NCBI GenBank assembly: GCA_034437635.1
Contig: DAOTTT010000053.1
Span: forward strand, 1-50,257
Direction: 5' to 3'
DNA from: Anaerolineae bacterium
GTDB lineage: Bacteria; Chloroflexota; Anaerolineae; Aggregatilineales; Phototrophicaceae
DNA length: 50,257 nucleotides
A program made the translations under genes and the position numbers. Below are positions 2,176 through 26,908 of this stretch, in pieces. How positions within the stretch are numbered: position 1 is the stretch's first letter; the number at the start of each line of letters is the position of its first letter. A model generated the notes under the pieces. It made no database searches, was not told where the DNA came from, and saw only the letters and a program-made list of their open reading frames with translations.

Positions 2176-3150
2176 ATGCGTTGGTTATTTTTCGCGTTGA
2201 TGGTGATGCTATCAGGTATCGGTATTCATGCACAAGAAGATGCCCCATCGCTCACCTGCCCGGAGGACTTCGCCGGGTATTTAGCCCCACGCTTGAGTGT
2301 CGGTAATTCCGCCCGTGTGCTGACCGTGCCGCTGAACCTCCGGCCGGAGGCCAGCACCGCCCGCGCCCGTTTGGATCAACTACAACCGGGGACAACGGTG
2401 CAGATCACCGATGGGCCGCGCTGCAATGAGGGCTATGTATGGTGGCAGGCCGTCCACAACGCGCAAACCGGGTGGATTGCGGAAGGCACCAGCGCCGACA
2501 ACACCTATTGGACACAACCACGCGGCGAACTGGTCTATCTCGACGGGGGAGACGGCATCGCCCGCCCTTACATCCGCCGGGCAGATGACACGCTTGAGCC
2601 TGCCGGGTGCATCCGTCCACCGGATAATTACAACCGCGTTTCTATTGGCTATGCCACGCTCAACCAGCGCACGCTATTTATGCTGGAACAAGCCTCCAAC
2701 ACCTGGCAATCGTTCGGCGGGGTGTATCGCTTCCGCGATCTCATCACGCAGGGCGGCTATAACAACGGCGCAGTCGAAGCCAGCTTCGGCACGCATGACG
2801 GCGGCGGCGCGGTGGATATTTCCGTGCGGAGCCGTGTAGATTGGAGTGTGATGTGGGCGGAAATCCCGTATATGATCGAGGCATTGCGCATCGCCGGGTT
2901 TGCCGCATGGGTGCGCGAGGACGGCGAACTTTACCCCAATTCGCCCATACACATTCATGCCATCGCCGTCGGTGACGCGGAATTATCGCCTGCCGCCCAA
3001 GCTCAGATCGACGGCGAACGCGGGTATCTGCGCGGGTATAACGGCCTACCGGCAAGCTACGGCGAGCCGATCCCGGATAAATGGGGCGAGCCGGTCATCT
3101 GCCAATGGATGATCGATGATGGTTGGCCGGATTTGCGTGTAGCGGGGTAA
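2176..3150 (+). CDS. Secreted SH3b-domain / LAS-type (M15-like) zinc peptidase, probable cell-wall DD- or LD-peptidase
   Basis: Signal peptide MRWLFFALMVMLSGIGIHAQ. SH3b-like block GTTVQITDGPRCNEGYVWWQAVHNAQTGWIAEG. Zn-ligand motifs H-x6-D (HDGGGAVD) and HxH (HIHAIA). Confidence 0.6.
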   Translation: MRWLFFALMVMLSGIGIHAQEDAPSLTCPEDFAGYLAPRLSVGNSARVLTVPLNLRPEASTARARLDQLQPGTTVQITDGPRCNEGYVWWQAVHNAQTGWIAEGTSADNTYWTQPRGELVYLDGGDGIARPYIRRADDTLEPAGCIRPPDNYNRVSIGYATLNQRTLFMLEQASNTWQSFGGVYRFRDLITQGGYNNGAVEASFGTHDGGGAVDISVRSRVDWSVMWAEIPYMIEALRIAGFAAWVREDGELYPNSPIHIHAIAVGDAELSPAAQAQIDGERGYLRGYNGLPASYGEPIPDKWGEPVICQWMIDDGWPDLRVAG

Positions 3151-3165
3151 CTATTCGCGGCGACC

Positions 3166-4719
3166 TCACTCGTCGTCGGCATGTCTTTCGCGGGTCTTGC
3201 GGTCGATAATCGCCAGTTCTTTGGTGGCCGGGCGGCGGTTGCGCTGGATAAGCGGGATACGTGGGCGCGTGGAACGACTGTGACTTTCGGTTTCATCGGA
3301 TTCATCGCGGTTCGGGTCGTACACCGGGATCGTCACGGAGAAAGTCGTGCCCTCATCCGGGACACTTGTCACGCTGATTGTACCATTATGCGCTTCTGCG
3401 ATCCACTTCGCAATGGACAAGCCCAAGCCGAAGCCTTCGTTATCGTAATGATGACGCGAGGTTTCCGTCTGGAAGAAGCGTTCAAACACATGCTTCGTGT
3501 CCTCTTGGCTGATGCCGATGCCCGTATCTTTGACCCACAACACCGCATGATCGTTAATGTTCTCCAGGCCAATGACGATTTCGCCGCCGTCCGGCGTAAA
3601 CTTGACGGCGTTATTGACGAGATTATAAATCACCTGCTTGATGCGGTCAGCGTTCCCGTTGATGCGCACTGGCTCAAAATGCCCCAAACGCACTGTAAGG
3701 TCACGGTCTTTTGCCAACACTTCACATTGCTGGAAGGAATCCATCACCACGACATCGAGATCAAGCGGATACAATTCAACATCAACACCGCCATAATCCG
3801 CCCGTGCCAGCATCAGCAGATCGCTGACTAAGCGCGACATCCGCCCGATTTCACTTTCGATGGCTTCTGCGGAGAGTTCATCCATACCATAACGCCGCAT
3901 CAAGTCAAAGTGACCTTGGATGGCCGTCAACGGCGTGCGCAACTCGTGGCTTATATCCGCCACGAAACGCTTCTGCACGCTAAACAGATGCTCGATGCGC
4001 TCCATCATCTTGTTGAAGACGTTAGTCAGTTTGCCGAGTTCGTCGTTGGGGCCGCTCCAATCTAAGCGGGTTTGTAGGTCATTGGTGTTGGCGATGCTGG
4101 CTGCCGCGTTAGTAATATCACCGATGGGCTGCAAGGCGCGATGGGTAAACCACATACTGAGCAAACCCGCGCCGACAATAGCAAAGCCACACGCCACCAG
4201 CGTAATCACCAGTAGCGTATCTGTCGCAACGTTGACTTGATCTAAGGGGACGGCAACTTGAATATTGCCGACAATCTGCGCACCGCCACCGCTTGCCGTG
4301 ATAGGCTTCGTCAGCACGCGCATATTCAGCCCGGCGACCATCGTACTGTGGATGGTCGCCGTCACAGCGCCGAGTGCCTCTGCGTCAAGCGGCGTTGACC
4401 CTAGCCCCTCCGCAGTGAGCGAAGCGGCTTTAAACTCGTAACCATTATCCACAAATTCCCATGCTTGGACATATACCCCAGGGGCACGCAGCATATCCAG
4501 CGGTGCAAGGTCAATATTGACCCTTGGCGAATCGCCAAAGGTCGGCTCCGAGTAAATACGGCTGTTGCGCGTGATGAGGCTGGCGGTTTCCGCCAGCCCG
4601 CTGTCAATATTGCTAATCATCGTGAACCGCATCACGCCGTATGTTGAAACACCAAACACGATAATAATCATGGTGAGCAGCACGGCATAATACAGCGTGA
4701 GCCGCTTACGAATTGCCAT
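3166..4719 (-). CDS. Membrane sensor histidine kinase (2 TM, periplasmic loop, HAMP, HisKA, HATPase_c)
   Basis: 517 aa. H-box SHELRTPLTAIQGH, N-box NLVNNAVKFT, G-box GFGLGLSIA. Lies 24 nt downstream of an OmpR-type regulator on the same strand. Confidence 0.9.
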   Translation of the reverse strand: MAIRKRLTLYYAVLLTMIIIVFGVSTYGVMRFTMISNIDSGLAETASLITRNSRIYSEPTFGDSPRVNIDLAPLDMLRAPGVYVQAWEFVDNGYEFKAASLTAEGLGSTPLDAEALGAVTATIHSTMVAGLNMRVLTKPITASGGGAQIVGNIQVAVPLDQVNVATDTLLVITLVACGFAIVGAGLLSMWFTHRALQPIGDITNAAASIANTNDLQTRLDWSGPNDELGKLTNVFNKMMERIEHLFSVQKRFVADISHELRTPLTAIQGHFDLMRRYGMDELSAEAIESEIGRMSRLVSDLLMLARADYGGVDVELYPLDLDVVVMDSFQQCEVLAKDRDLTVRLGHFEPVRINGNADRIKQVIYNLVNNAVKFTPDGGEIVIGLENINDHAVLWVKDTGIGISQEDTKHVFERFFQTETSRHHYDNEGFGLGLSIAKWIAEAHNGTISVTSVPDEGTTFSVTIPVYDPNRDESDETESHSRSTRPRIPLIQRNRRPATKELAIIDRKTRERHADDE

Positions 4720-4743
4720 ATGTTCTCGTCAGCCTACCTGCTT

Positions 4744-5424
4744 TTATTCCTCGCGGAGGACATAACCGACCCCACGCACTGTATGGATTAAGCGACTTTC
4801 TTCTTCGGATTCGGTCTTCTGGCGCAAATAGCGCACATAGACTTCAATGATGTTGCTCTCTCCGCCGAAGTCGTAGCCCCATACACGATCAAAAATAACA
4901 TCGCGGGTCAATACCTGACGCGGATTGCGCATGAAGAGTTCGAGCAATTCGTACTCTTTGGCAGTCAGGTCGATCGCACGATCACCACGATGGGCGCGGT
5001 GTGTGCCTGTATCCAATGTAAGATCAGCGAAACGCAGTACCTCCGGGCGTGATGTCGGCGTTACACGGCGGAACATTGCCCGCACACGCGCCATAAGTTC
5101 ATCTACGGAGAAAGGTTTAACCAAATAGTCATCTGCACCAGCGTCCAGCCCGGTCACCCGGTCGTTAATGTCGTCTTTAGCTGTCAACATCAAAATCGGG
5201 ACTTCGCTAGCCGCACGCAAACGCTTGCAGACCTCTAGGCCATCAATGCCGGGCAGCATCCAATCCAAGATCACCAAGTCCGGCGGGTTGTCCCGCGCGA
5301 TGGTTAATCCTGTTTGCCCATCACGGGCAACATTGACACGGTACCCTTCGTAGATCAGGCCACGCTCGATAAATTGTGCAATTCTTGCTTCGTCTTCAAT
5401 GACGAGAATACGTTCACCAGACAT
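4744..5424 (-). CDS. OmpR/PhoB-family response regulator
   Basis: 226 aa. Receiver motifs [21 protein letters not shown] and LTAKD. Winged-helix C-terminus ([18 protein letters not shown]). Confidence 0.92.
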
Positions 5425-5515
5425 ATATAAACTTCCTCTGCGTTGTCTCTAATCGTAAACTTTGAGAATGAGCAGGATACATACCCTGCATTAAAAATCG
5501 GTAAATCTCGCTGTA

Positions 5516-7432
5516 TTATTCCCATCTTACTGCAATTATGCCGCCCGGACGCTGAAGAACGGACAATTCATCACCGTTGACAATCACCAGTTGATCCGTA
5601 TCACCACTCACCCCAGCCACTTGTAGACCATCAGCGGAGAGCCGCGCCGCACGGATAAAGCCGAGATCGGCCAGGGGGGTAAAGTCCCCGCCTGTGATGG
5701 GCACGAAGCCTAATGTCACACGGTCAGGGCCGAACGTCTGCCGCGTGCGAACAATCGCCCTAAACGTCCCAGGGTCGAACTGCGCCGCGTCCACAATCTC
5801 GAAGGCGTTCGTCGTCCATAACGGTAACACGCTGATCGGGTCAACGCGACTGTCAATTAAGGCGAGTTCGGTCCCTTGCGGCGCATTGCGCCAAGCCAAC
5901 ATACGCCCATCGACTAACCATAATGCTCTATCATACGTGTCTATCGTTAATAATGCCTCAGAAACCGGATCAAAAACGGCGATTTCTGGGCTTTCACTCA
6001 CCAGATGGATGAGCAAAGCATTAACATTGGGCGCGAAAGCCGGGCGACGGACGTTCACCCCTTCACTATTAGGCAGAATCAAGGTCGGCGCGTTTAACTC
6101 TGCGGTGGGTGTGGTGGCTACCTGCCACAGGCCGCCATCCACAATGTTGGTCGTCACATAATACAGTAACGTGCCATCCGCACTAAAAGTTAAATCAGTG
6201 GCCGTATCGTTGACCTTCGCCAGTTCGACGGGTTCATCCCCGGTTTGCAGCCACAACGACCCGCCGCTGCTATACGCGACCGTATCCCCACGCAGGGCGA
6301 AATCAACCACATCAAAATCGACCTGTGTCAGTTGTTGGCGCGGGGAGCCATCCGCAGGCAAGCGCCACGCTTGCATCACGCCGAAGCTCGGCGCACGGAA
6401 CGTCACATCTTGCCCGGTGGCGATGCCCTCTTGCCCAACCGGGAGCAACGCCCCCCAGCCAAACGCGACGGCGCTCCCCACAGGCAGCGCAAAGCCGACC
6501 CCTTCCAGCGGCAGCACCAACGAGAGCGCCCCATCACGAAACGACAGCATCAACTCCCCGCGTGGCACCCAGCTTAAGCCCGTCACATCGAGATCGTTTT
6601 CGCTGGTTGTCTCCACCGTGCCCGTCGCCGCGTCGATCACTTGATAAAACGCGCCGCTCTCCCCGATGACGGGTTCGTCCGGTTGGCGGGATAGCACGGC
6701 AATCCGTCCATCCGGGCGCACATACGGATAACGATATAAGCGGTTGGCCGGGCGGATGACCGTCTGTGTGTTCACGTTATCGAGATCCAGCAGCAACAGG
6801 CCGCCTTCCGCCGGGGCGAAGACCAAGCGCCCGCCATCCAGCCACGACGTGCCAAACGAGAACGGCAACGCCCCGGTGATGGGCATCGCGTTAGCTTCGC
6901 GGCGATACAGCCACCACACCCGCGCTTCCGCCTCCGCTGCGAGATACCGACCATCCAGCGACCACGCCAGATGCCGCAGCGGGCTAACGGCAATATCCGT
7001 AAACTGTGTGCCCGTCGCGCTGAGGTTAAACGCGACCCGTGCGCCGTATTCGGTAGTATACGCCAGCGCATCCCCTGTAGGCGACCAGTCAAGGGTCTGC
7101 CCGCCGGTGCGCAGCGGCGGGAAGTTGGCCGTCGTGCCTTCCACTTGTAGCGGGTCGCTTTCGGGCGCTTCCATATCGTACAAATAAAGGCCGTCCGCGC
7201 TGCGATACGCGATCCAGCGGCCATCCGGCGCGACAGCAAAATCAACGACAAAAACATCCGGTGGTGTGACCGCTTGCACACCTGCCGCCCCCAAGCCGAC
7301 TCGCTCTACACGGCCTTCATTGAGTAGAATATACAATCCGGTCGGCAGGTCTTGTCCATCACTCTGTGCGGCCACACGCCCCACAGCAAGCAACAACAAC
7401 AAACACCCAACCAGAACCAACTTTCGTAACAT
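5516..7432 (-). CDS. Secreted TolB-like beta-propeller protein, function unknown
   Basis: 638 aa. Signal peptide ending VAAQ. Repeated PDGR/SPDG-type blade motifs (APDGRWIAY, SLDGRYLA, RPDGRIAV, SADGTLLYY). RBS GGAGGG. Confidence 0.6.
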   Translation of the reverse strand: MLRKLVLVGCLLLLLAVGRVAAQSDGQDLPTGLYILLNEGRVERVGLGAAGVQAVTPPDVFVVDFAVAPDGRWIAYRSADGLYLYDMEAPESDPLQVEGTTANFPPLRTGGQTLDWSPTGDALAYTTEYGARVAFNLSATGTQFTDIAVSPLRHLAWSLDGRYLAAEAEARVWWLYRREANAMPITGALPFSFGTSWLDGGRLVFAPAEGGLLLLDLDNVNTQTVIRPANRLYRYPYVRPDGRIAVLSRQPDEPVIGESGAFYQVIDAATGTVETTSENDLDVTGLSWVPRGELMLSFRDGALSLVLPLEGVGFALPVGSAVAFGWGALLPVGQEGIATGQDVTFRAPSFGVMQAWRLPADGSPRQQLTQVDFDVVDFALRGDTVAYSSGGSLWLQTGDEPVELAKVNDTATDLTFSADGTLLYYVTTNIVDGGLWQVATTPTAELNAPTLILPNSEGVNVRRPAFAPNVNALLIHLVSESPEIAVFDPVSEALLTIDTYDRALWLVDGRMLAWRNAPQGTELALIDSRVDPISVLPLWTTNAFEIVDAAQFDPGTFRAIVRTRQTFGPDRVTLGFVPITGGDFTPLADLGFIRAARLSADGLQVAGVSGDTDQLVIVNGDELSVLQRPGGIIAVRWE

Positions 7433-23439: not shown

Positions 23440-24316
23440 TTTGTGCCGCGAGTTCGGCAGCGGTCAAGAAGCCGTCAGCCGCGCCCGCCACGCCAATTTT
23501 ATACGACGCAAACACGACCGCCTGCTTAAGTGCGTCGTGCGCATGGCCGGATTGCATATAGCCGTGTACAAATGCGCTGAACAGCGCATCCCCCGCGCCG
23601 ACCGTGTTGACGATGGGGCGTGTGTGCACTGCGGGAACGTGCACGGCAGACGCGCCCCGCTCTCGCAAGATCGCGCCTTGCGCACCACACCCCACCACAA
23701 CTACCGCCGGATCATAACGTTGGCCGATTTGCTGCGTCCATGCTTGCGGCGTAGTCGGTAGATTTTCGTGGCTCTGGAACAGAATATCAGCGGCGGCCAT
23801 GTAATCCTGGTTATAGTCGTCGTCAATGGCGCTGATGGCATGAACGTCCGTTGCGATGGGCACCCCAGCGGCCTGTGCCATACCGAGCAACCCCCGCGCA
23901 AAATTGATATTGCAAATCACCGCGCATTGCACGTCATCAAACGCCTGCTCCGCCGCTATGGTGCGCTCTTGCAGGTCTTTGAGGTCGGTAAAAATTGCCC
24001 GTTTGCCCTGCGCATCGTACAGGATGACCGATTGGGCCGTGTGGGGTGCATCGCGGACGATATGTGCGGATGAGACATTGAGCGCCTCAATCGCTGTAAT
24101 GACCTGATCGCCTGCGAGGTCGTGCCCGATGAGTGAAAGAAAGCGCACGTCATCGCCCAAGGTCTTCAGCGCCTTAGTGATGTTATAGCCCACCCCGGCG
24201 ACGGTGGTAGTCACACCGAAAAACGGATACCGCACCGGGGCGTATGTAACCGGGAACGCATCGACTTTGAGCGTGGTTTCAATGTTAATCAACCCGGCGA
24301 CTAAAATCTTCATCAT
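23426..24316 (-). CDS. PfkB-family carbohydrate kinase
   Basis: C-terminal motif TVGAGDALFSAF. Ribokinase-like length. Start at ATG 24316 (MMKILVAG) after AAAGGA. Confidence 0.8.
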   Translation of the reverse strand: MMKILVAGLINIETTLKVDAFPVTYAPVRYPFFGVTTTVAGVGYNITKALKTLGDDVRFLSLIGHDLAGDQVITAIEALNVSSAHIVRDAPHTAQSVILYDAQGKRAIFTDLKDLQERTIAAEQAFDDVQCAVICNINFARGLLGMAQAAGVPIATDVHAISAIDDDYNQDYMAAADILFQSHENLPTTPQAWTQQIGQRYDPAVVVVGCGAQGAILRERGASAVHVPAVHTRPIVNTVGAGDALFSAFVHGYMQSGHAHDALKQAVVFASYKIGVAGAADGFLTAAELAAQTSSC

Positions 24317-24338
24317 CGTCATCCTTTGGTGCAAATAG

Positions 24339-24536
24339 GTAACTACTCAGCTAACGTGTATATTGCCCGCATCGGCTCAAAGCCGATGGCTACATAAACT
24401 CTTGGAAGCCCATAAATGGGCTGTATACAATGATACTTCTCACTAATTGCCCCATTTATGGGTCGCCCGTTTACGGGCTTTGCAGTTAGCTAGTCCCCGG
24501 TTTTGAACCGGGGCAGCATACAAATCAGCACGTTAC
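24339..24536 (+). mobile_element. MITE-family copy C (full length, diverged right end)
   Basis: Starts GTAACTACTCAG and contains all the hairpin modules. Flanked by GCAAATAG (24331-24338) and GAAAATAG (24537-24544), a 7/8 target-site duplication. Confidence 0.8.
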
Positions 24537-24594
24537 GAAAATAGGCGTTAATCGTAGATGTTACTTATTTTTTATATTACAATGTAATGAGCGG

Positions 24595-24933
24595 CTATAA
24601 ATCAGAGGTCAGACCATACAGCGTGGTAACCACACCCAAAAGCCCTACAAATAAATAACCAAAGTTATCTATAGAAGCACTTTGGATCAAATTTGAGACT
24701 TCACCCACGCCAAGTTGAAGCAGGAAGGGGCTAAGGAACAATGAGGTTTTTTTCCAAAAGTTGTTTTTGTGTCCATACAATTCTTTGTGTGCTTGCTGGA
24801 TATGATGGGGGTTGACTGCTGTATTTGACCATGACTTAGAGGCGATTTCACTAGCACGAAGTTTGATGTTCATTCTGAATTGACTTGTGTATTCGCGGAG
24901 TTTTTCTTGCGCTTTTTCAGATAATTGGGTCAT
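24595..24933 (-). CDS. Hypothetical small protein: helical N-terminal domain plus two C-terminal TM helices (112 aa)
   Basis: ORF in the AT-rich islet. Hydrophobic stretches TSLFLSPFLLQLGVG and FGYLFVGLLGVVTTLYGL. Confidence 0.5.
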   Translation of the reverse strand: MTQLSEKAQEKLREYTSQFRMNIKLRASEIASKSWSNTAVNPHHIQQAHKELYGHKNNFWKKTSLFLSPFLLQLGVGEVSNLIQSASIDNFGYLFVGLLGVVTTLYGLTSDL

Positions 24934-24958
24934 TTATCACATAGCTTTACGGCAATCA

Positions 24959-25342
24959 CTATTTTTTAGCAGATGAAACCAGCTTTTTTTCCTGTTTATG
25001 ACGATACCAGTTTGTAGCAAATACACCAGCACTCAAGCCTAATGCTATACTCACCCAAGCAAGAATTGTCGATAAGCTATCATCAATTTGATTATCATTA
25101 AACAGTACAAAAATTATAAACAACACACCTGCCATTACGCAAATAGAAAGTGTAGCACCAAAAAATAGGCTCACATAGCGCAAACGATTGACGTTTAAAT
25201 CTGTTGTACTCTTGGGGTTAAGCATTGTCTTTTTACGCGGAATAAGGAATTCTTGGGCCTTTTTGTTATGTCGTGCGTCGTGGGTTTTTGTAGCTTGCAT
25301 TTTTTTGGCAACACGCTGTTTTTGTGCTAATTTTGGATTCAT
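24959..25342 (-). CDS. Hypothetical small protein: Lys/Arg-rich N-terminus plus two TM helices (127 aa)
   Basis: ORF in the AT-rich islet. TM stretches YVSLFFGATLSICVMAGVLFIIFVLF and LSTILAWVSIALGLSAGVFATNW. Basic tail. Confidence 0.5.
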   Translation of the reverse strand: MNPKLAQKQRVAKKMQATKTHDARHNKKAQEFLIPRKKTMLNPKSTTDLNVNRLRYVSLFFGATLSICVMAGVLFIIFVLFNDNQIDDSLSTILAWVSIALGLSAGVFATNWYRHKQEKKLVSSAKK

Positions 25343-25381
25343 TTATGATTGCATTTCATTTATCCATAATTCACAAAATGT

Positions 25382-25390
25382 ATTATAACA
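25382..25390 (-). promoter_or_regulatory. Extended -10 element (TGTTATAAT) for the islet genes
   Basis: Minus strand reads TGT-TATAAT about 40 nt upstream of the ATG at 25342. The -35 is weak. Confidence 0.4.
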
Positions 25391-25420
25391 CAACATTTAC
25401 GTAAAAAGGGATAAGAAAAA

Positions 25421-26908
25421 ATGACACGTTTCATTCTTGCACTCGACCAGGGAACAACCTCCTCACGCGCAATTTTGTTCGACCACAACGGGCAAATCGT
25501 CCGCGAAGCGCAGCGGGAATTCAAACAACATTACCCGCGCCCCGGTTGGGTCGAGCACGACCCCAACCAAATTTGGGAAACACAACTGGCCGTCGCCCGC
25601 GAAGTTGTCGATGGCAAGCCGCAAGAAATCGTTGCGATTGGCATCACCAATCAACGCGAAACAACCATCGTCTGGGATAAAGAAACGGGCGAACCGGTCT
25701 ATAACGCCATCGTCTGGCAAGATCGCCGCACGGCGAAATTATGCGATCAACTGATTGCAGAAGGCTTTGACCAAAATATCCTGGAAAAAACCGGGCTGGT
25801 GACGGATGCGTACTTCTCCGCGACCAAGATCGCCTGGATTTTGGACAACGTAGACGGCGCACGCGCCAAAGCGGAAGATGGCAAGCTGTTGTTCGGCACG
25901 GTGGATACCTTCCTTGTTTGGAAACTCACCGGGGGGCGCTTCCACATCACCGATGTCAGCAACGCCAGCCGGACAATGCTCTACAACATCCACAAGAAAT
26001 GGTGGAGCACGACCATTAGCGAGCGCCTGGGCATCCCCATGCAGATGTTGCCCCAGGTGACAAGTAGCAGCATGGCCTATGGGCACACCGACGCAGAGCA
26101 CCTGGGCGAGCGCATAACCATCGGCGGCATCGCTGGCGACCAACAAGCGGCGACATTTGGGCAAGCGTGCTTTATGCCCGGCCTGGGCAAGAACACCTAC
26201 GGCACCGGCGGCTTTATGCTGCTCAACACCGGGGATAAGCCGCAGACCTCCCACAATAAGTTGCTGACCACCGTCGCCTGGCGGCTCAATGAGCAGGCCA
26301 CACAATACGCCCTAGAAGGGAGTATCTTCATCGCCGGGGCAGCGGTGCAATGGCTGCGCGATGAGATGAAGTTTATTAAGGACTCCGCCGAGTCGGAAGC
26401 CGTCGCCCGCAGTGTCGATAGCACCGATGGCGTGTACGTCGTCCCCGCGTTCGTGGGCATGGGTGCGCCCCATTGGGATCAGTACGCACGCGGAACAATC
26501 CTCGGCCTCACACGCGGCAGCGGGCAAGCGCAAATCGTCCGCGCTACGCTGGAAGGTATCGCCTACCAAACCCGCGATGTCATCACCGCGATGGAAGCCG
26601 ACAGCGGCATGACGCTCAACGCCTTGCGCGTGGACGGCGGCGCGACACAAAACAACTTCCTGATGCAGTTCCAAGCGGATATTCTCGGCGTGCCTGTCGA
26701 GCGTCCCGCCATCACAGAGACGACCGCCCTCGGCGCGGCGTATCTGGCCGGGTTAGCGGTGGGTTACTGGTCATCGCAAGAGGAAATCGCCCAACAATGG
26801 CGCGTGGAAAAGACCTTCGAGCCGGAGATGGGCGAAGATCAACGCGAAAAGCTGTTTGCTGGTTGGCAGAAGGCTGTCCAACGGGCGAAGGCGTGGGCGG
26901 AAGAATAA
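25421..26908 (+). CDS. glpK: Glycerol kinase
   Basis: 495 aa. [38 protein letters not shown] and [20 protein letters not shown] are classic FGGY/GlpK signatures. Confidence 0.97.

Follow-up and report, generated by a model that had tools for sequence, protein, structure and literature searches.

Two tandem orphan reading frames for predicted small membrane proteins in an AT-rich spacer of an uncultured Anaerolineae bacterium

Described systems closest to the pair

Class II holins, or pinholins, carry two transmembrane (TM) helices in an N-in/C-in arrangement, as exemplified by S21 of phage 21. Small membrane toxin/antitoxin and abortive-infection effectors, represented among the PADLOC families, are likewise small, paired and carried on strain-specific DNA of atypical composition. 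Taxonomically restricted, orphan small membrane proteins include TM proteins that in yeast emerged de novo from non-genic DNA rich in thymine (Vakirlis et al. 2020, PMC7005711). Finally, the transmembrane histones, a minor category among bacterial histone-fold proteins, contain TM domains and lack DNA-binding residues (Schwab et al. 2024, Nat Commun 15:7950, PMC11390915).

Here we describe a tandem pair of reading frames, ORF2 and ORF1, from an uncultured Anaerolineae bacterium of Andean microbial mats, which shares features with each of these systems. Like class II holins, ORF2 is small, with two TM segments joined by a short loop, both ends predicted to be cytoplasmic, and a basic C-terminal tail; the weakly hydrophobic first helix of ORF1 and the adjacency of the two membrane-protein genes are further likenesses. 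Unlike these holins, however, ORF1 and ORF2 have long N-terminal domains (55–62 aa), no endolysin, spanin or phage gene lies nearby, the holin family phrog_20 was matched only at E = 0.62 and no relative was found in phage or viral collections. The pair resembles the small membrane toxin/antitoxin and abortive-infection effectors in size, pairing and atypical DNA, but it matches no PADLOC family and has no defence-island neighbors. With the taxonomically restricted orphan membrane proteins it has in common the lack of homologs, intergenic-like composition and k-mers, TM-dominated products, weak translation signals and periodicity, and an intergenic slot. It differs in that the host is a bacterium, in that two tandem ORFs of more than 110 aa each have an ordered architecture, and in that no non-coding ancestral ortholog was found, the nearest genomes being too divergent (GlpK 50–76% identical). 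Like the transmembrane histones, ORF1 is small, with an N-terminal helical domain that faintly follows the α2-L2-α3 pattern and is followed by TM helices, and it has none of the usual basic DNA-binding residues; in contrast to them, it lacks helix α1 and has neither a structural match nor a sequence relative, and its Pfam score lies below the cut-off, at the level of shuffled noise.

The islet and its two reading frames

The window, that is, the whole stretch of 50,257 nucleotides that was analyzed, contains an AT-rich islet between the divergent genes pfkB (minus strand) and glpK (plus strand). This spacer consists of the islet and a MITE copy and nothing else. The features of the locus are as follows.

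24335 to 24540, no strand assigned: repeat element with the MITE copy at 24339 to 24536; at least 40 copies in the same genome, 75–86% identity
24541 to 25420, no strand assigned: AT-rich islet, 0.366 G+C, single copy in the genome
24595 to 24933, minus strand: ORF1, 112 aa; gene call in all four other assemblies
24607 to 24666, minus strand: second hydrophobic helix of ORF1; 19-residue Kyte-Doolittle peak 1.63
24682 to 24747, minus strand: first hydrophobic helix of ORF1; borderline TM, contains E78; codon position 2 T 0.50
24790 to 24927, minus strand: ORF1 aa 3–48 against α2-L2-α3 of PF00808; sub-threshold, judged noise level
24959 to 25342, minus strand: ORF2, 127 aa, first of the tandem pair; gene call of the NCBI assembly
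25010 to 25072, minus strand: coding segment of predicted ORF2 TM2; mean hydropathy 1.42 in frame vs. 0.19 and −0.07 out of frame
25100 to 25174, minus strand: coding segment of predicted ORF2 TM1; codon position 2 T 0.68, A 0.00
25390 to 25382, minus strand: extended −10 element TGTTATAAT; the ORF2 ATG follows 39 nt downstream

The islet and its two same-strand ORFs of 112 and 127 aa, first noticed in a sequence-only reading, were reproduced, and the hand counts of G+C given there proved exact (17/60 for 24541–24600, 18/60 for 25081–25140 and 38/60 for 25501–25560). G+C is 0.35–0.39 over 24500–25400, as compared to 0.53–0.63 in the flanks. Genome-wide, only 4 of 7889 windows of 880 nt are as low in G+C as the islet (0.366) or lower, which lies 4 SD below the genome mean of 0.527 (SD 0.039, 880-nt windows). 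Short native intergenic DNA of the same genome has a mean G+C of 0.41; among ORF-free gaps of at least 600 nt the lowest other value is 0.39, and none is as AT-rich as the islet. The MITE named as one boundary of the islet is real; it sits between ORF1 and the same-strand pfkB, at the islet edge and outside the cassette. Four other independent assemblies carry the locus either unchanged or at 99.9% identity, which excludes an assembly chimera. Across these assemblies (99.9–100% identical) the islet contains zero SNPs, and dN/dS could thus not be obtained from them. No second copy of the islet was found in the genome, leading us to reject a repeated islet or a mobile-element passenger, and no flanking direct repeats beyond chance surround it. 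The neighboring genes are metabolic and regulatory (a GAF histidine kinase, a PfkB kinase, GlpK, HlyIII and CydA), with no endolysin, spanin, integrase, mobility, defence or phage gene among them. An Rfam search of 23500–26000 returned no ncRNA at E ≤ 1.

ORF1 starts 25 nt downstream of ORF2 and was called in full by three annotation sources, NCBI, JGI and ENA. ORF2 was called in full by NCBI only; in the JGI assembly and in one from ENA it runs into a contig end, leaving 88 aa. The ORF2 protein has a polybasic, low-confidence tail (aa 1–55), TM1 (aa 57–81), an acidic loop, NDNQIDDS, TM2 (aa 91–111) and a basic C-terminal tail, with a net charge of +14 and hydropathy peaks of 2.74 and 1.89 (Kyte-Doolittle, 19-residue); its charge distribution predicts an N-in/C-in topology. 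ORF1 has an N-terminal helix-loop-helix (helices 4–36 and 42 onwards) followed by weaker hydrophobic helices at aa 63–84 and 90–109, with peaks of 1.41 and 1.63 on the same scale. The single-sequence AlphaFold2 models are of moderate confidence (pLDDT 72.6 for the ORF1 monomer and 66.6 for ORF2), and in both the helices agree with hydropathy, consistent with the architecture first proposed for the two proteins, a soluble N terminus (55–62 aa) and a two-helix hairpin. ORF1 and ORF2 do not align with each other; their common architecture thus reflects no detectable duplication.

Several observations suggest that the pair is real coding sequence. A same-strand pair of ORFs of at least 112 aa arose in 0 of 5000 dinucleotide-preserving shuffles of the islet and in 1 of 5000 sequences simulated from its third-order Markov model, which argues against random ORFs in AT-rich spacer. 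The architecture of an N-terminal part plus hairpin was seen in 0.3–0.9% of composition-matched random stop-free ORFs. In all four hydrophobic segments of ORF1 and ORF2, both the hydrophobicity and the T content of codon position 2 are specific to the reading frame; for ORF2 TM1, mean hydropathy is 2.58 in frame vs. 1.15 and 0.38 when the frame is shifted. The charge distribution obeys the positive-inside rule. The beyond-chance ORFs, the rare architecture, the frame-specific signals, the charges and the gene calls together support coding. Across the genome, only four small ORFs of low G+C that lie outside long ORFs have two TM-like peaks, and two of these are the present pair. G+C by codon position in ORF2 follows the order 1 > 2 > 3 (0.45/0.35/0.31, p = 0.02), and codon-position heterogeneity in ORF1 is weak and not significant (p = 0.55). 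Codon-position-3 G+C is 0.31–0.42 in ORF1 and ORF2 vs. ∼0.70 in the flanking genes.

The extended −10 element TGTTATAAT reported upstream of ORF2 is present, with no recognizable −35 partner. We infer that it could act as a promoter from which the pair is transcribed, and that ORF1 and ORF2 are translated. A Shine-Dalgarno core is absent for both ORFs and present in at least 39% of long ORFs, and three tiny upstream ORFs, all out of frame, lie in the ORF2 leader. In simple scans for terminators and sigma-70 promoters, the signal was no higher than in shuffles.

Homolog searches and origin of the DNA

A word-based search of 5.8 billion clustered proteins with both ORFs, and a full HMMER search of 1.84 billion representatives with ORF1, returned self-matches only. 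No relative of the pair was found in 50,697 phage records (tblastn), 72,556 plasmids (blastn), or IMG/VR and JGI metagenome scans, and none of either ORF in phmmer searches against the PDB. Foldseek comparisons of both AlphaFold2 models with the PDB and BFVD yielded nothing below E = 0.9; the structural check suggested earlier for the single proteins revealed no recognizable fold relative. Pfam, NCBIfam, PADLOC and PHROGs gave sub-threshold noise only. Specifically, neither protein matched any PADLOC family at E ≤ 1, the best PHROGs E-value was 0.021 (phrog_20, holin, E = 0.62) and no holin family appeared in the Pfam or NCBIfam searches. Matches to PheRS alpha (18.7 bits vs. a 350-bit cut-off) and ABC2_membrane_5 (17.6 bits vs. 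a cut-off of 25) were discarded as noise. A search of 400 Chloroflexota genomes with ORF2 yielded no relative; its matches (E = 7e-5 to 0.01) fell in TM regions of multi-spanning frames of 500–1000 aa, APC/MFS-type transporter-like by eye; these were rejected as composition-driven.

Neither ORF was found by six-frame protein or DNA searches of 40 relatives, of which three belong to the same genus. Three relatives were compared at the slot upstream of glpK, and each has different genes there. The two genes are accessory, since relatives lack them; the accessory status proposed from the sequence therefore stands. GlpK of the nearest genomes is 50–76% identical, a divergence at which detectable non-coding homology is lost even within the genus.

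The islet had also been read as DNA of foreign composition, with a k-mer analysis proposed as the check. We scored it under 2- to 4-mer Markov models of native intergenic DNA, expressing the gain in nats per base. The islet gained +0.009 to +0.015, as compared to +0.001 to +0.005 for held-out native intergenic DNA and about −0.01 to −0.016 for foreign AT-rich coding DNA. It fitted the native-intergenic model better than 98–99% of the AT-rich coding chunks of other taxa, where the foreign controls were a limited set of taxa and a donor sharing the host signature, such as a same-lineage phage or plasmid, would fit equally. The low G+C was confirmed. A foreign composition is doubtful because the islet is the whole pfkB–glpK spacer, because native intergenic DNA of this genome is AT-rich too and because the k-mers are native-like. 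Import from a distant donor is less likely, and the native-like G+C and k-mers, the weak ORF1 periodicity, the missing Shine-Dalgarno core and the lack of mobility genes and flanking repeats favor a young or local origin.

Explanations for the pair

The explanation that we favor, with moderate confidence, is that the islet is a young, species-restricted two-cistron membrane-protein unit, ORF2 then ORF1. Both products would be genuine small inner-membrane proteins, each an N-in/C-in helical hairpin whose predicted periplasmic loop is only 6–10 residues long, leaving all soluble mass in the cytoplasm. In ORF2 this mass would be the 55-aa polybasic tail, which is probably disordered, and in ORF1 the 62-aa helix-loop-helix. 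The genes are orphans and most likely young; they probably arose or were remodeled in local AT-rich spacer DNA, with a mobile element of the same lineage as the alternative source. The two hairpins might associate with each other in the membrane, the ORF2 tail could bind an anionic partner, for example an acidic lipid or nucleic acid, and the ORF1 helical domain may mediate oligomerization. The outcome would be a small accessory or regulatory complex residing in the membrane, with a benefit that is marginal or depends on conditions; hetero-association and any physiological role are inferred. Metagenome-assembled genomes commonly encode small orphan membrane proteins, most of which are never examined. 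The present pair is a clean example, with a delimited spacer, ORFs beyond chance, no homologs and a host-like intergenic signature, and given confirmed expression and closer relatives, the locus could be used to test how bacterial membrane-protein genes originate. As it stands, it reveals no new defence, toxin or chromatin system.

A narrower form of the favored explanation, which we consider unlikely, is that the two tandem genes were born recently, de novo or nearly so, from the bacterium's own AT-rich intergenic DNA. If so, each member of the pair would already be ordered in its architecture, with a cytoplasmic domain ahead of the N-in/C-in hairpin, and the case would parallel in a bacterium the path by which thymine-rich DNA gave rise to TM proteins in yeast.

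It is similarly improbable that the ORFs are non-functional, being frames open by chance, or relics, in a long AT-rich regulatory or decayed spacer, where T-rich and A-rich tracts would produce the look of a membrane protein. TM-like peptides are indeed known from T-rich non-genic DNA (PMC7005711), and the lack of homologs in any search, the G+C and k-mer usage of native intergenic DNA, the ORF1 codon-position statistic (p = 0.55), the missing Shine-Dalgarno core and the tiny ORFs in the leader are all consistent with non-functional ORFs. Against this, the tandem pair was all but unobtainable in the null simulations (0/5000 and 1/5000), the architecture has p ≤ 0.009 per ORF, and the hydrophobicity is frame-specific, with no A at codon position 2 (0.00) in the ORF2 TM1 segment; moreover, an 880-nt non-coding spacer this AT-rich would itself be exceptional in the genome.

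We hold to be equally doubtful a horizontally acquired membrane effector and its partner, of the toxin/immunity, abortive-infection, superinfection-exclusion or holin/antiholin type, in which one hairpin protein would permeabilize or depolarize the membrane and the other restrain it. The extreme low G+C, most evident against the flanking genes at codon position 3, the variable slot adjoining a MITE, the absence of the pair from relatives and the adjacency of two small membrane proteins as one unit would fit such a module. ORF2 alone shows the class II holin layout, that is, two TM segments, N-in/C-in, and a charged C-terminal tail, with the topology taken from charges. However, PADLOC gave zero matches and PHROGs only E ≥ 0.021, the phage, plasmid and IMG/VR collections contained no relatives, no endolysin, integrase or defence genes are nearby, N-terminal cytoplasmic domains of 55–62 aa are atypical for holins and small membrane toxins, and the k-mers fit native intergenic DNA better than nearly all foreign AT-rich coding DNA. 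The toxin/immunity, abortive-infection or holin-like module suggested initially was therefore not borne out, the PADLOC, PHROG and phage searches being negative and the neighbors metabolic.

Highly unlikely is a further reading in which ORF1 would be a divergent transmembrane histone, its histone fold anchored in the membrane, with ORF2 as its nucleic-acid-binding partner and the pair tethering DNA or protein to the membrane; a histone fold for ORF1 was rejected on shuffled controls, the missing helix α1, the lack of a structural match and the lack of an HMfB alignment. The faint histone-fold resemblance seen by eye corresponds to an alignment of ORF1 aa 3–48 with positions 20–64 of the 65 in PF00808 (E = 0.056, 0.037 and 0.014), at 14.2, 16.5 and 16.1 bits vs. 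a gathering threshold of 21.4, and 2 of 7 reversed or shuffled controls matched unrelated families equally well (E = 0.013 and 0.056). In-frame TGA and TAA codons directly upstream of the ORF1 ATG make helix α1 impossible. The best Foldseek E-values were 1.7 (PDB) and 0.98 (BFVD) with no histone among the matches, phmmer against the PDB found none, BLASTP against a hand-typed HMfB sequence produced no alignment, and the 1.84 billion representatives contain no ORF1 relative. TM-bearing bacterial histone-fold proteins do exist as a described class (PMC11390915), and the ORF1 segment is the sole PF00808 match when the genome is translated in six frames; sub-threshold PF00808 matches occur in five control bacteria too.

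Composition and boundaries of the islet

The islet, an AT-rich segment (24541-25420) beside glpK, has a G+C content of 0.366, a value equaled or undercut in just 4 of the 7889 windows of equal length across the genome. G+C is 0.35-0.39 over 24500-25400 compared to 0.53-0.63 on either side, and the 60-nt counts of the sequence-only reading (17/60, 18/60 and 38/60) proved exact on recount. The window is contig C53 of a MAG (3.8 Mb, 488 contigs) that is 94% complete with 0.527 G+C.

Features of the islet and its borders (window coordinates)
Left of the islet, beyond the repeat, same strand as the ORFs: PfkB-family kinase gene (pfkB)
24335-24540: MITE-type structured repeat
24595-24933, minus strand: ORF1, 112 aa
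24959-25342, minus strand: ORF2, 127 aa
39 nt upstream of ORF2, minus strand: extended -10, TGTTATAAT, plausible by sequence
Right of the islet, strand opposite to the ORFs: glpK

Since pfkB and glpK flank the islet and repeat, the islet constitutes the whole divergent pfkB-glpK spacer minus the MITE. The repeat reported at its left edge (~190-198 bp) is real. Across the MAG, at least 40 copies of it were scored at 75-86% identity, from 188 candidates at first look; many lie at contig ends, and the repeat therefore probably adds to assembly fragmentation.

The extended -10 claimed upstream of ORF2 is likewise present. Its TATTATAA core (25382-25390) gives TATAAT when read on the minus strand and, on the plus strand, TATTAT, which could serve as a glpK -10 (TTTATC lies 16 nt upstream); two divergent promoters may thus overlap face to face in the 78-nt gap. 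Three tiny upstream ORFs, all out of frame (MDK, MKCNHK and MQS, each followed by a stop), lie in the predicted ORF2 leader (25343-25381, minus strand). No Shine-Dalgarno core precedes ORF1 or ORF2, compared to its presence at 39% or more of long ORFs (background 5%); the two share the start context ATAAATGA. On the plus strand, a 66-aa hydrophobic ORF (25188-25388) overlaps the lysine-rich 5′ part of ORF2 in antisense; it is probably no gene, arising instead from AAA/TTT complementarity.

Coding evidence and predicted architecture of the ORF pair

The two same-strand ORFs described earlier were borne out, separated by a 25-nt gap. Of 5000 dinucleotide-preserving shuffles none produced two non-overlapping same-strand ORFs of at least 112 aa, and a third-order Markov model trained on the islet itself produced them in 1 of 5000 sequences. 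The shared layout, a hydrophilic N-terminal part of 55-62 residues followed by two hydrophobic helices, was confirmed in both proteins and occurs in 0.3-0.9% of stop-free random ORFs matched in base composition. Genome-wide, the ORFs of 90-159 aa that are below 0.42 G+C and outside long ORFs number 20; four of them have two TM-like peaks, two of these being ORF1 and ORF2. In ORF2 TM1, codon position 2 has T = 0.68 and A = 0.00, and mean hydropathy is 2.58 in frame but drops to 1.15 and 0.38 when the frame is shifted; the remaining three hydrophobic segments are likewise frame-specific. Judged by sequence, both ORFs are very probably real coding sequences. ORF2 (codon-position heterogeneity, p = 0.02) is more secure than ORF1, for which codon-position heterogeneity falls short of significance (p = 0.55) and the first hydrophobic helix is borderline as a TM segment. 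These figures bear on the rival reading of chance or relic, non-functional ORFs, which we consider unlikely.

Kyte-Doolittle 19-residue peaks are 2.74 and 1.89 for ORF2 and 1.41 and 1.63 for ORF1, and the hydropathy-predicted helices agree with those of single-sequence AlphaFold2 models. The predicted topology of both is an N-in/C-in hairpin with a 6-10-residue loop and a cytoplasmic N-terminal domain, polybasic and low-confidence in ORF2 and helix-loop-helix in ORF1. The charges of ORF2 fit the positive-inside rule (protein +14, basic N-terminal tail, acidic loop NDNQIDDS, basic C-terminal tail); in ORF1 the signal is a KK ahead of the first helix.

Relatives and candidate functions

Against 5.8 billion clustered proteins both ORFs returned self-matches alone, as did ORF1 in a full HMMER pass against 1.84 billion representatives. 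Six-frame searches of 40 relatives (three same-genus) found no match at the protein or DNA level, phmmer against PDB and Foldseek against PDB and BFVD gave none, and no relationship between ORF1 and ORF2 was detectable. In 400 Chloroflexota genomes ORF2 drew TM-driven matches alone; these were rejected as relatives, falling in long multi-spanning frames that by eye resemble APC/MFS-type transporters. Orphan small-membrane-protein gene pairs are an ordinary kind of thing, here unusually cleanly documented.

An acquired toxin/immunity-like or holin-like module, as proposed from the paired membrane proteins and foreign composition, appears improbable. No tie to defence, lysis or toxin-antitoxin function was found: the neighbours are metabolic/regulatory (HlyIII, GlpK, PfkB, GAF-HisKA_3 kinase, CydA), Pfam, NCBIfam, PADLOC and PHROGs gave noise at most, and phage, plasmid, IMG/VR and JGI metagenome scans were empty.

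That ORF1 is a transmembrane histone, a minor category without DNA-binding residues already described (PMC11390915), is highly improbable. The Pfam histone-fold profile PF00808 echoes the resemblance first seen by eye, aligning its positions 20-64 of 65 with ORF1 residues 3-48 (whole protein, E = 0.056, 14.2 bits; N-terminal domain alone, E = 0.014, 16.1 bits; genome-wide six-frame scan, 16.5 bits), yet these scores fall under the 21.4-bit cut-off and sub-threshold matches also occur in five control bacteria. Moreover, 2 of 7 reversed or shuffled versions of ORF1's N-terminal 62 residues matched unrelated families equally strongly (E = 0.013 and 0.056), helix α1 is impossible because TGA and TAA lie in frame just upstream of the ATG, and the ORF1 model had no structural match to a histone. 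BLASTP against HMfB gave no alignment, which counts as a lead only.

Origin of the pair and its source population

Gene content immediately upstream of glpK differs among three Anaerolineae relatives (L021 (G003:C13), 2883-6463; L022 (G020:C8), 5410-6346; L027, 3402-3959), and the slot resembles a local gene-turnover hotspot. By reading of translations, glpK and the conserved GAF kinase are separated in the closest same-genus genome (76% identity in GlpK) by an AsnRS-like gene, two small ORFs and a CNNM/CBS-type gene; the slot contains an OsmC-like and an 84-aa Smr-like gene in the second relative and a 185-aa Uma2/DUF820-like gene in the third.

The claim of foreign composition was weakened: the islet's G+C is extreme, but intergenic G+C is natively low (short gaps, mean 0.41, 10th percentile 0.32) and the islet's k-mers are native-like. 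Low G+C alone is no proof of foreign origin in this genome. Markov models of order 2-4 were trained on ~100 kb of native short intergenic DNA excluding the islet, and in a repeat run also excluding MITE copies.

Markov gain in nats per base, relative to a score from each sequence's own base composition
Islet: +0.009 to +0.015
Held-out native low-GC intergenic segments: +0.001 to +0.005 (sd ~0.007)
Native low-GC large genes: -0.010 to +0.005
95 AT-rich coding chunks, other taxa: -0.010 to -0.016
AT-rich intergenic DNA, other taxa: -0.023
Random same-composition sequence: -0.022

Among the foreign coding chunks, just 1-2% attained the islet's gain, and a distant AT-rich donor is a poor fit. Young genes arisen or reshaped locally fit, because of the native-like k-mers, the absence of mobility genes among the neighbours and of repeats flanking the islet, the missing Shine-Dalgarno core, the upstream ORFs and the total orphan status; in yeast, TM proteins are documented to arise from thymine-rich DNA (PMC7005711). 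A donor sharing the host signature (for example a phage or plasmid specific to the lineage) is also compatible, and the Markov test does not separate it from local origin. The other most AT-rich segments (0.37-0.39 G+C; C185:1898-4126, C210:11620-13470, C389:5170-7380, C403:10396-11067) carry large genes, read by eye as a 742-aa STAND/TPR-like protein, a 616-aa methyltransferase/glycosyltransferase-like protein, a 736-aa membrane sensor kinase and a 223-aa ORF, with k-mers less native-intergenic-like than the islet's.

The original observation is confirmed and its interpretation partly supported. We favor, at about even odds, a real, young, species-restricted membrane-protein cassette. ORF2 and ORF1 would be co-transcribed from TGTTATAAT, the transcript possibly having run on into pfkB before MITE insertion; both products would insert into the membrane, where the hairpins may associate with each other and the polybasic ORF2 tail may contact an anionic partner. 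De novo gene birth in a bacterium is a further reading of the pair, of modest probability yet open to testing.

The best named relative of GlpK is from "Anaerolineae bacterium" (73% identity). Copies of the locus, identical or 99.9% identical, occur in GCA_964429505.1 (NCBI), 3300012009 (JGI metagenome) and two ENA microbial-mat assemblies (PRJEB25599), a project cited in a preprint on Andean microbial ecosystems (10.1101/870428). The window is matched at 100% identity by the JGI and NCBI copies, and over 2-2.6 kb the ENA assemblies differ from it solely at 23721, 23724, 24098 and 24451, three positions in pfkB, one in the MITE and none in the islet; the samples thus share a nearly clonal population.
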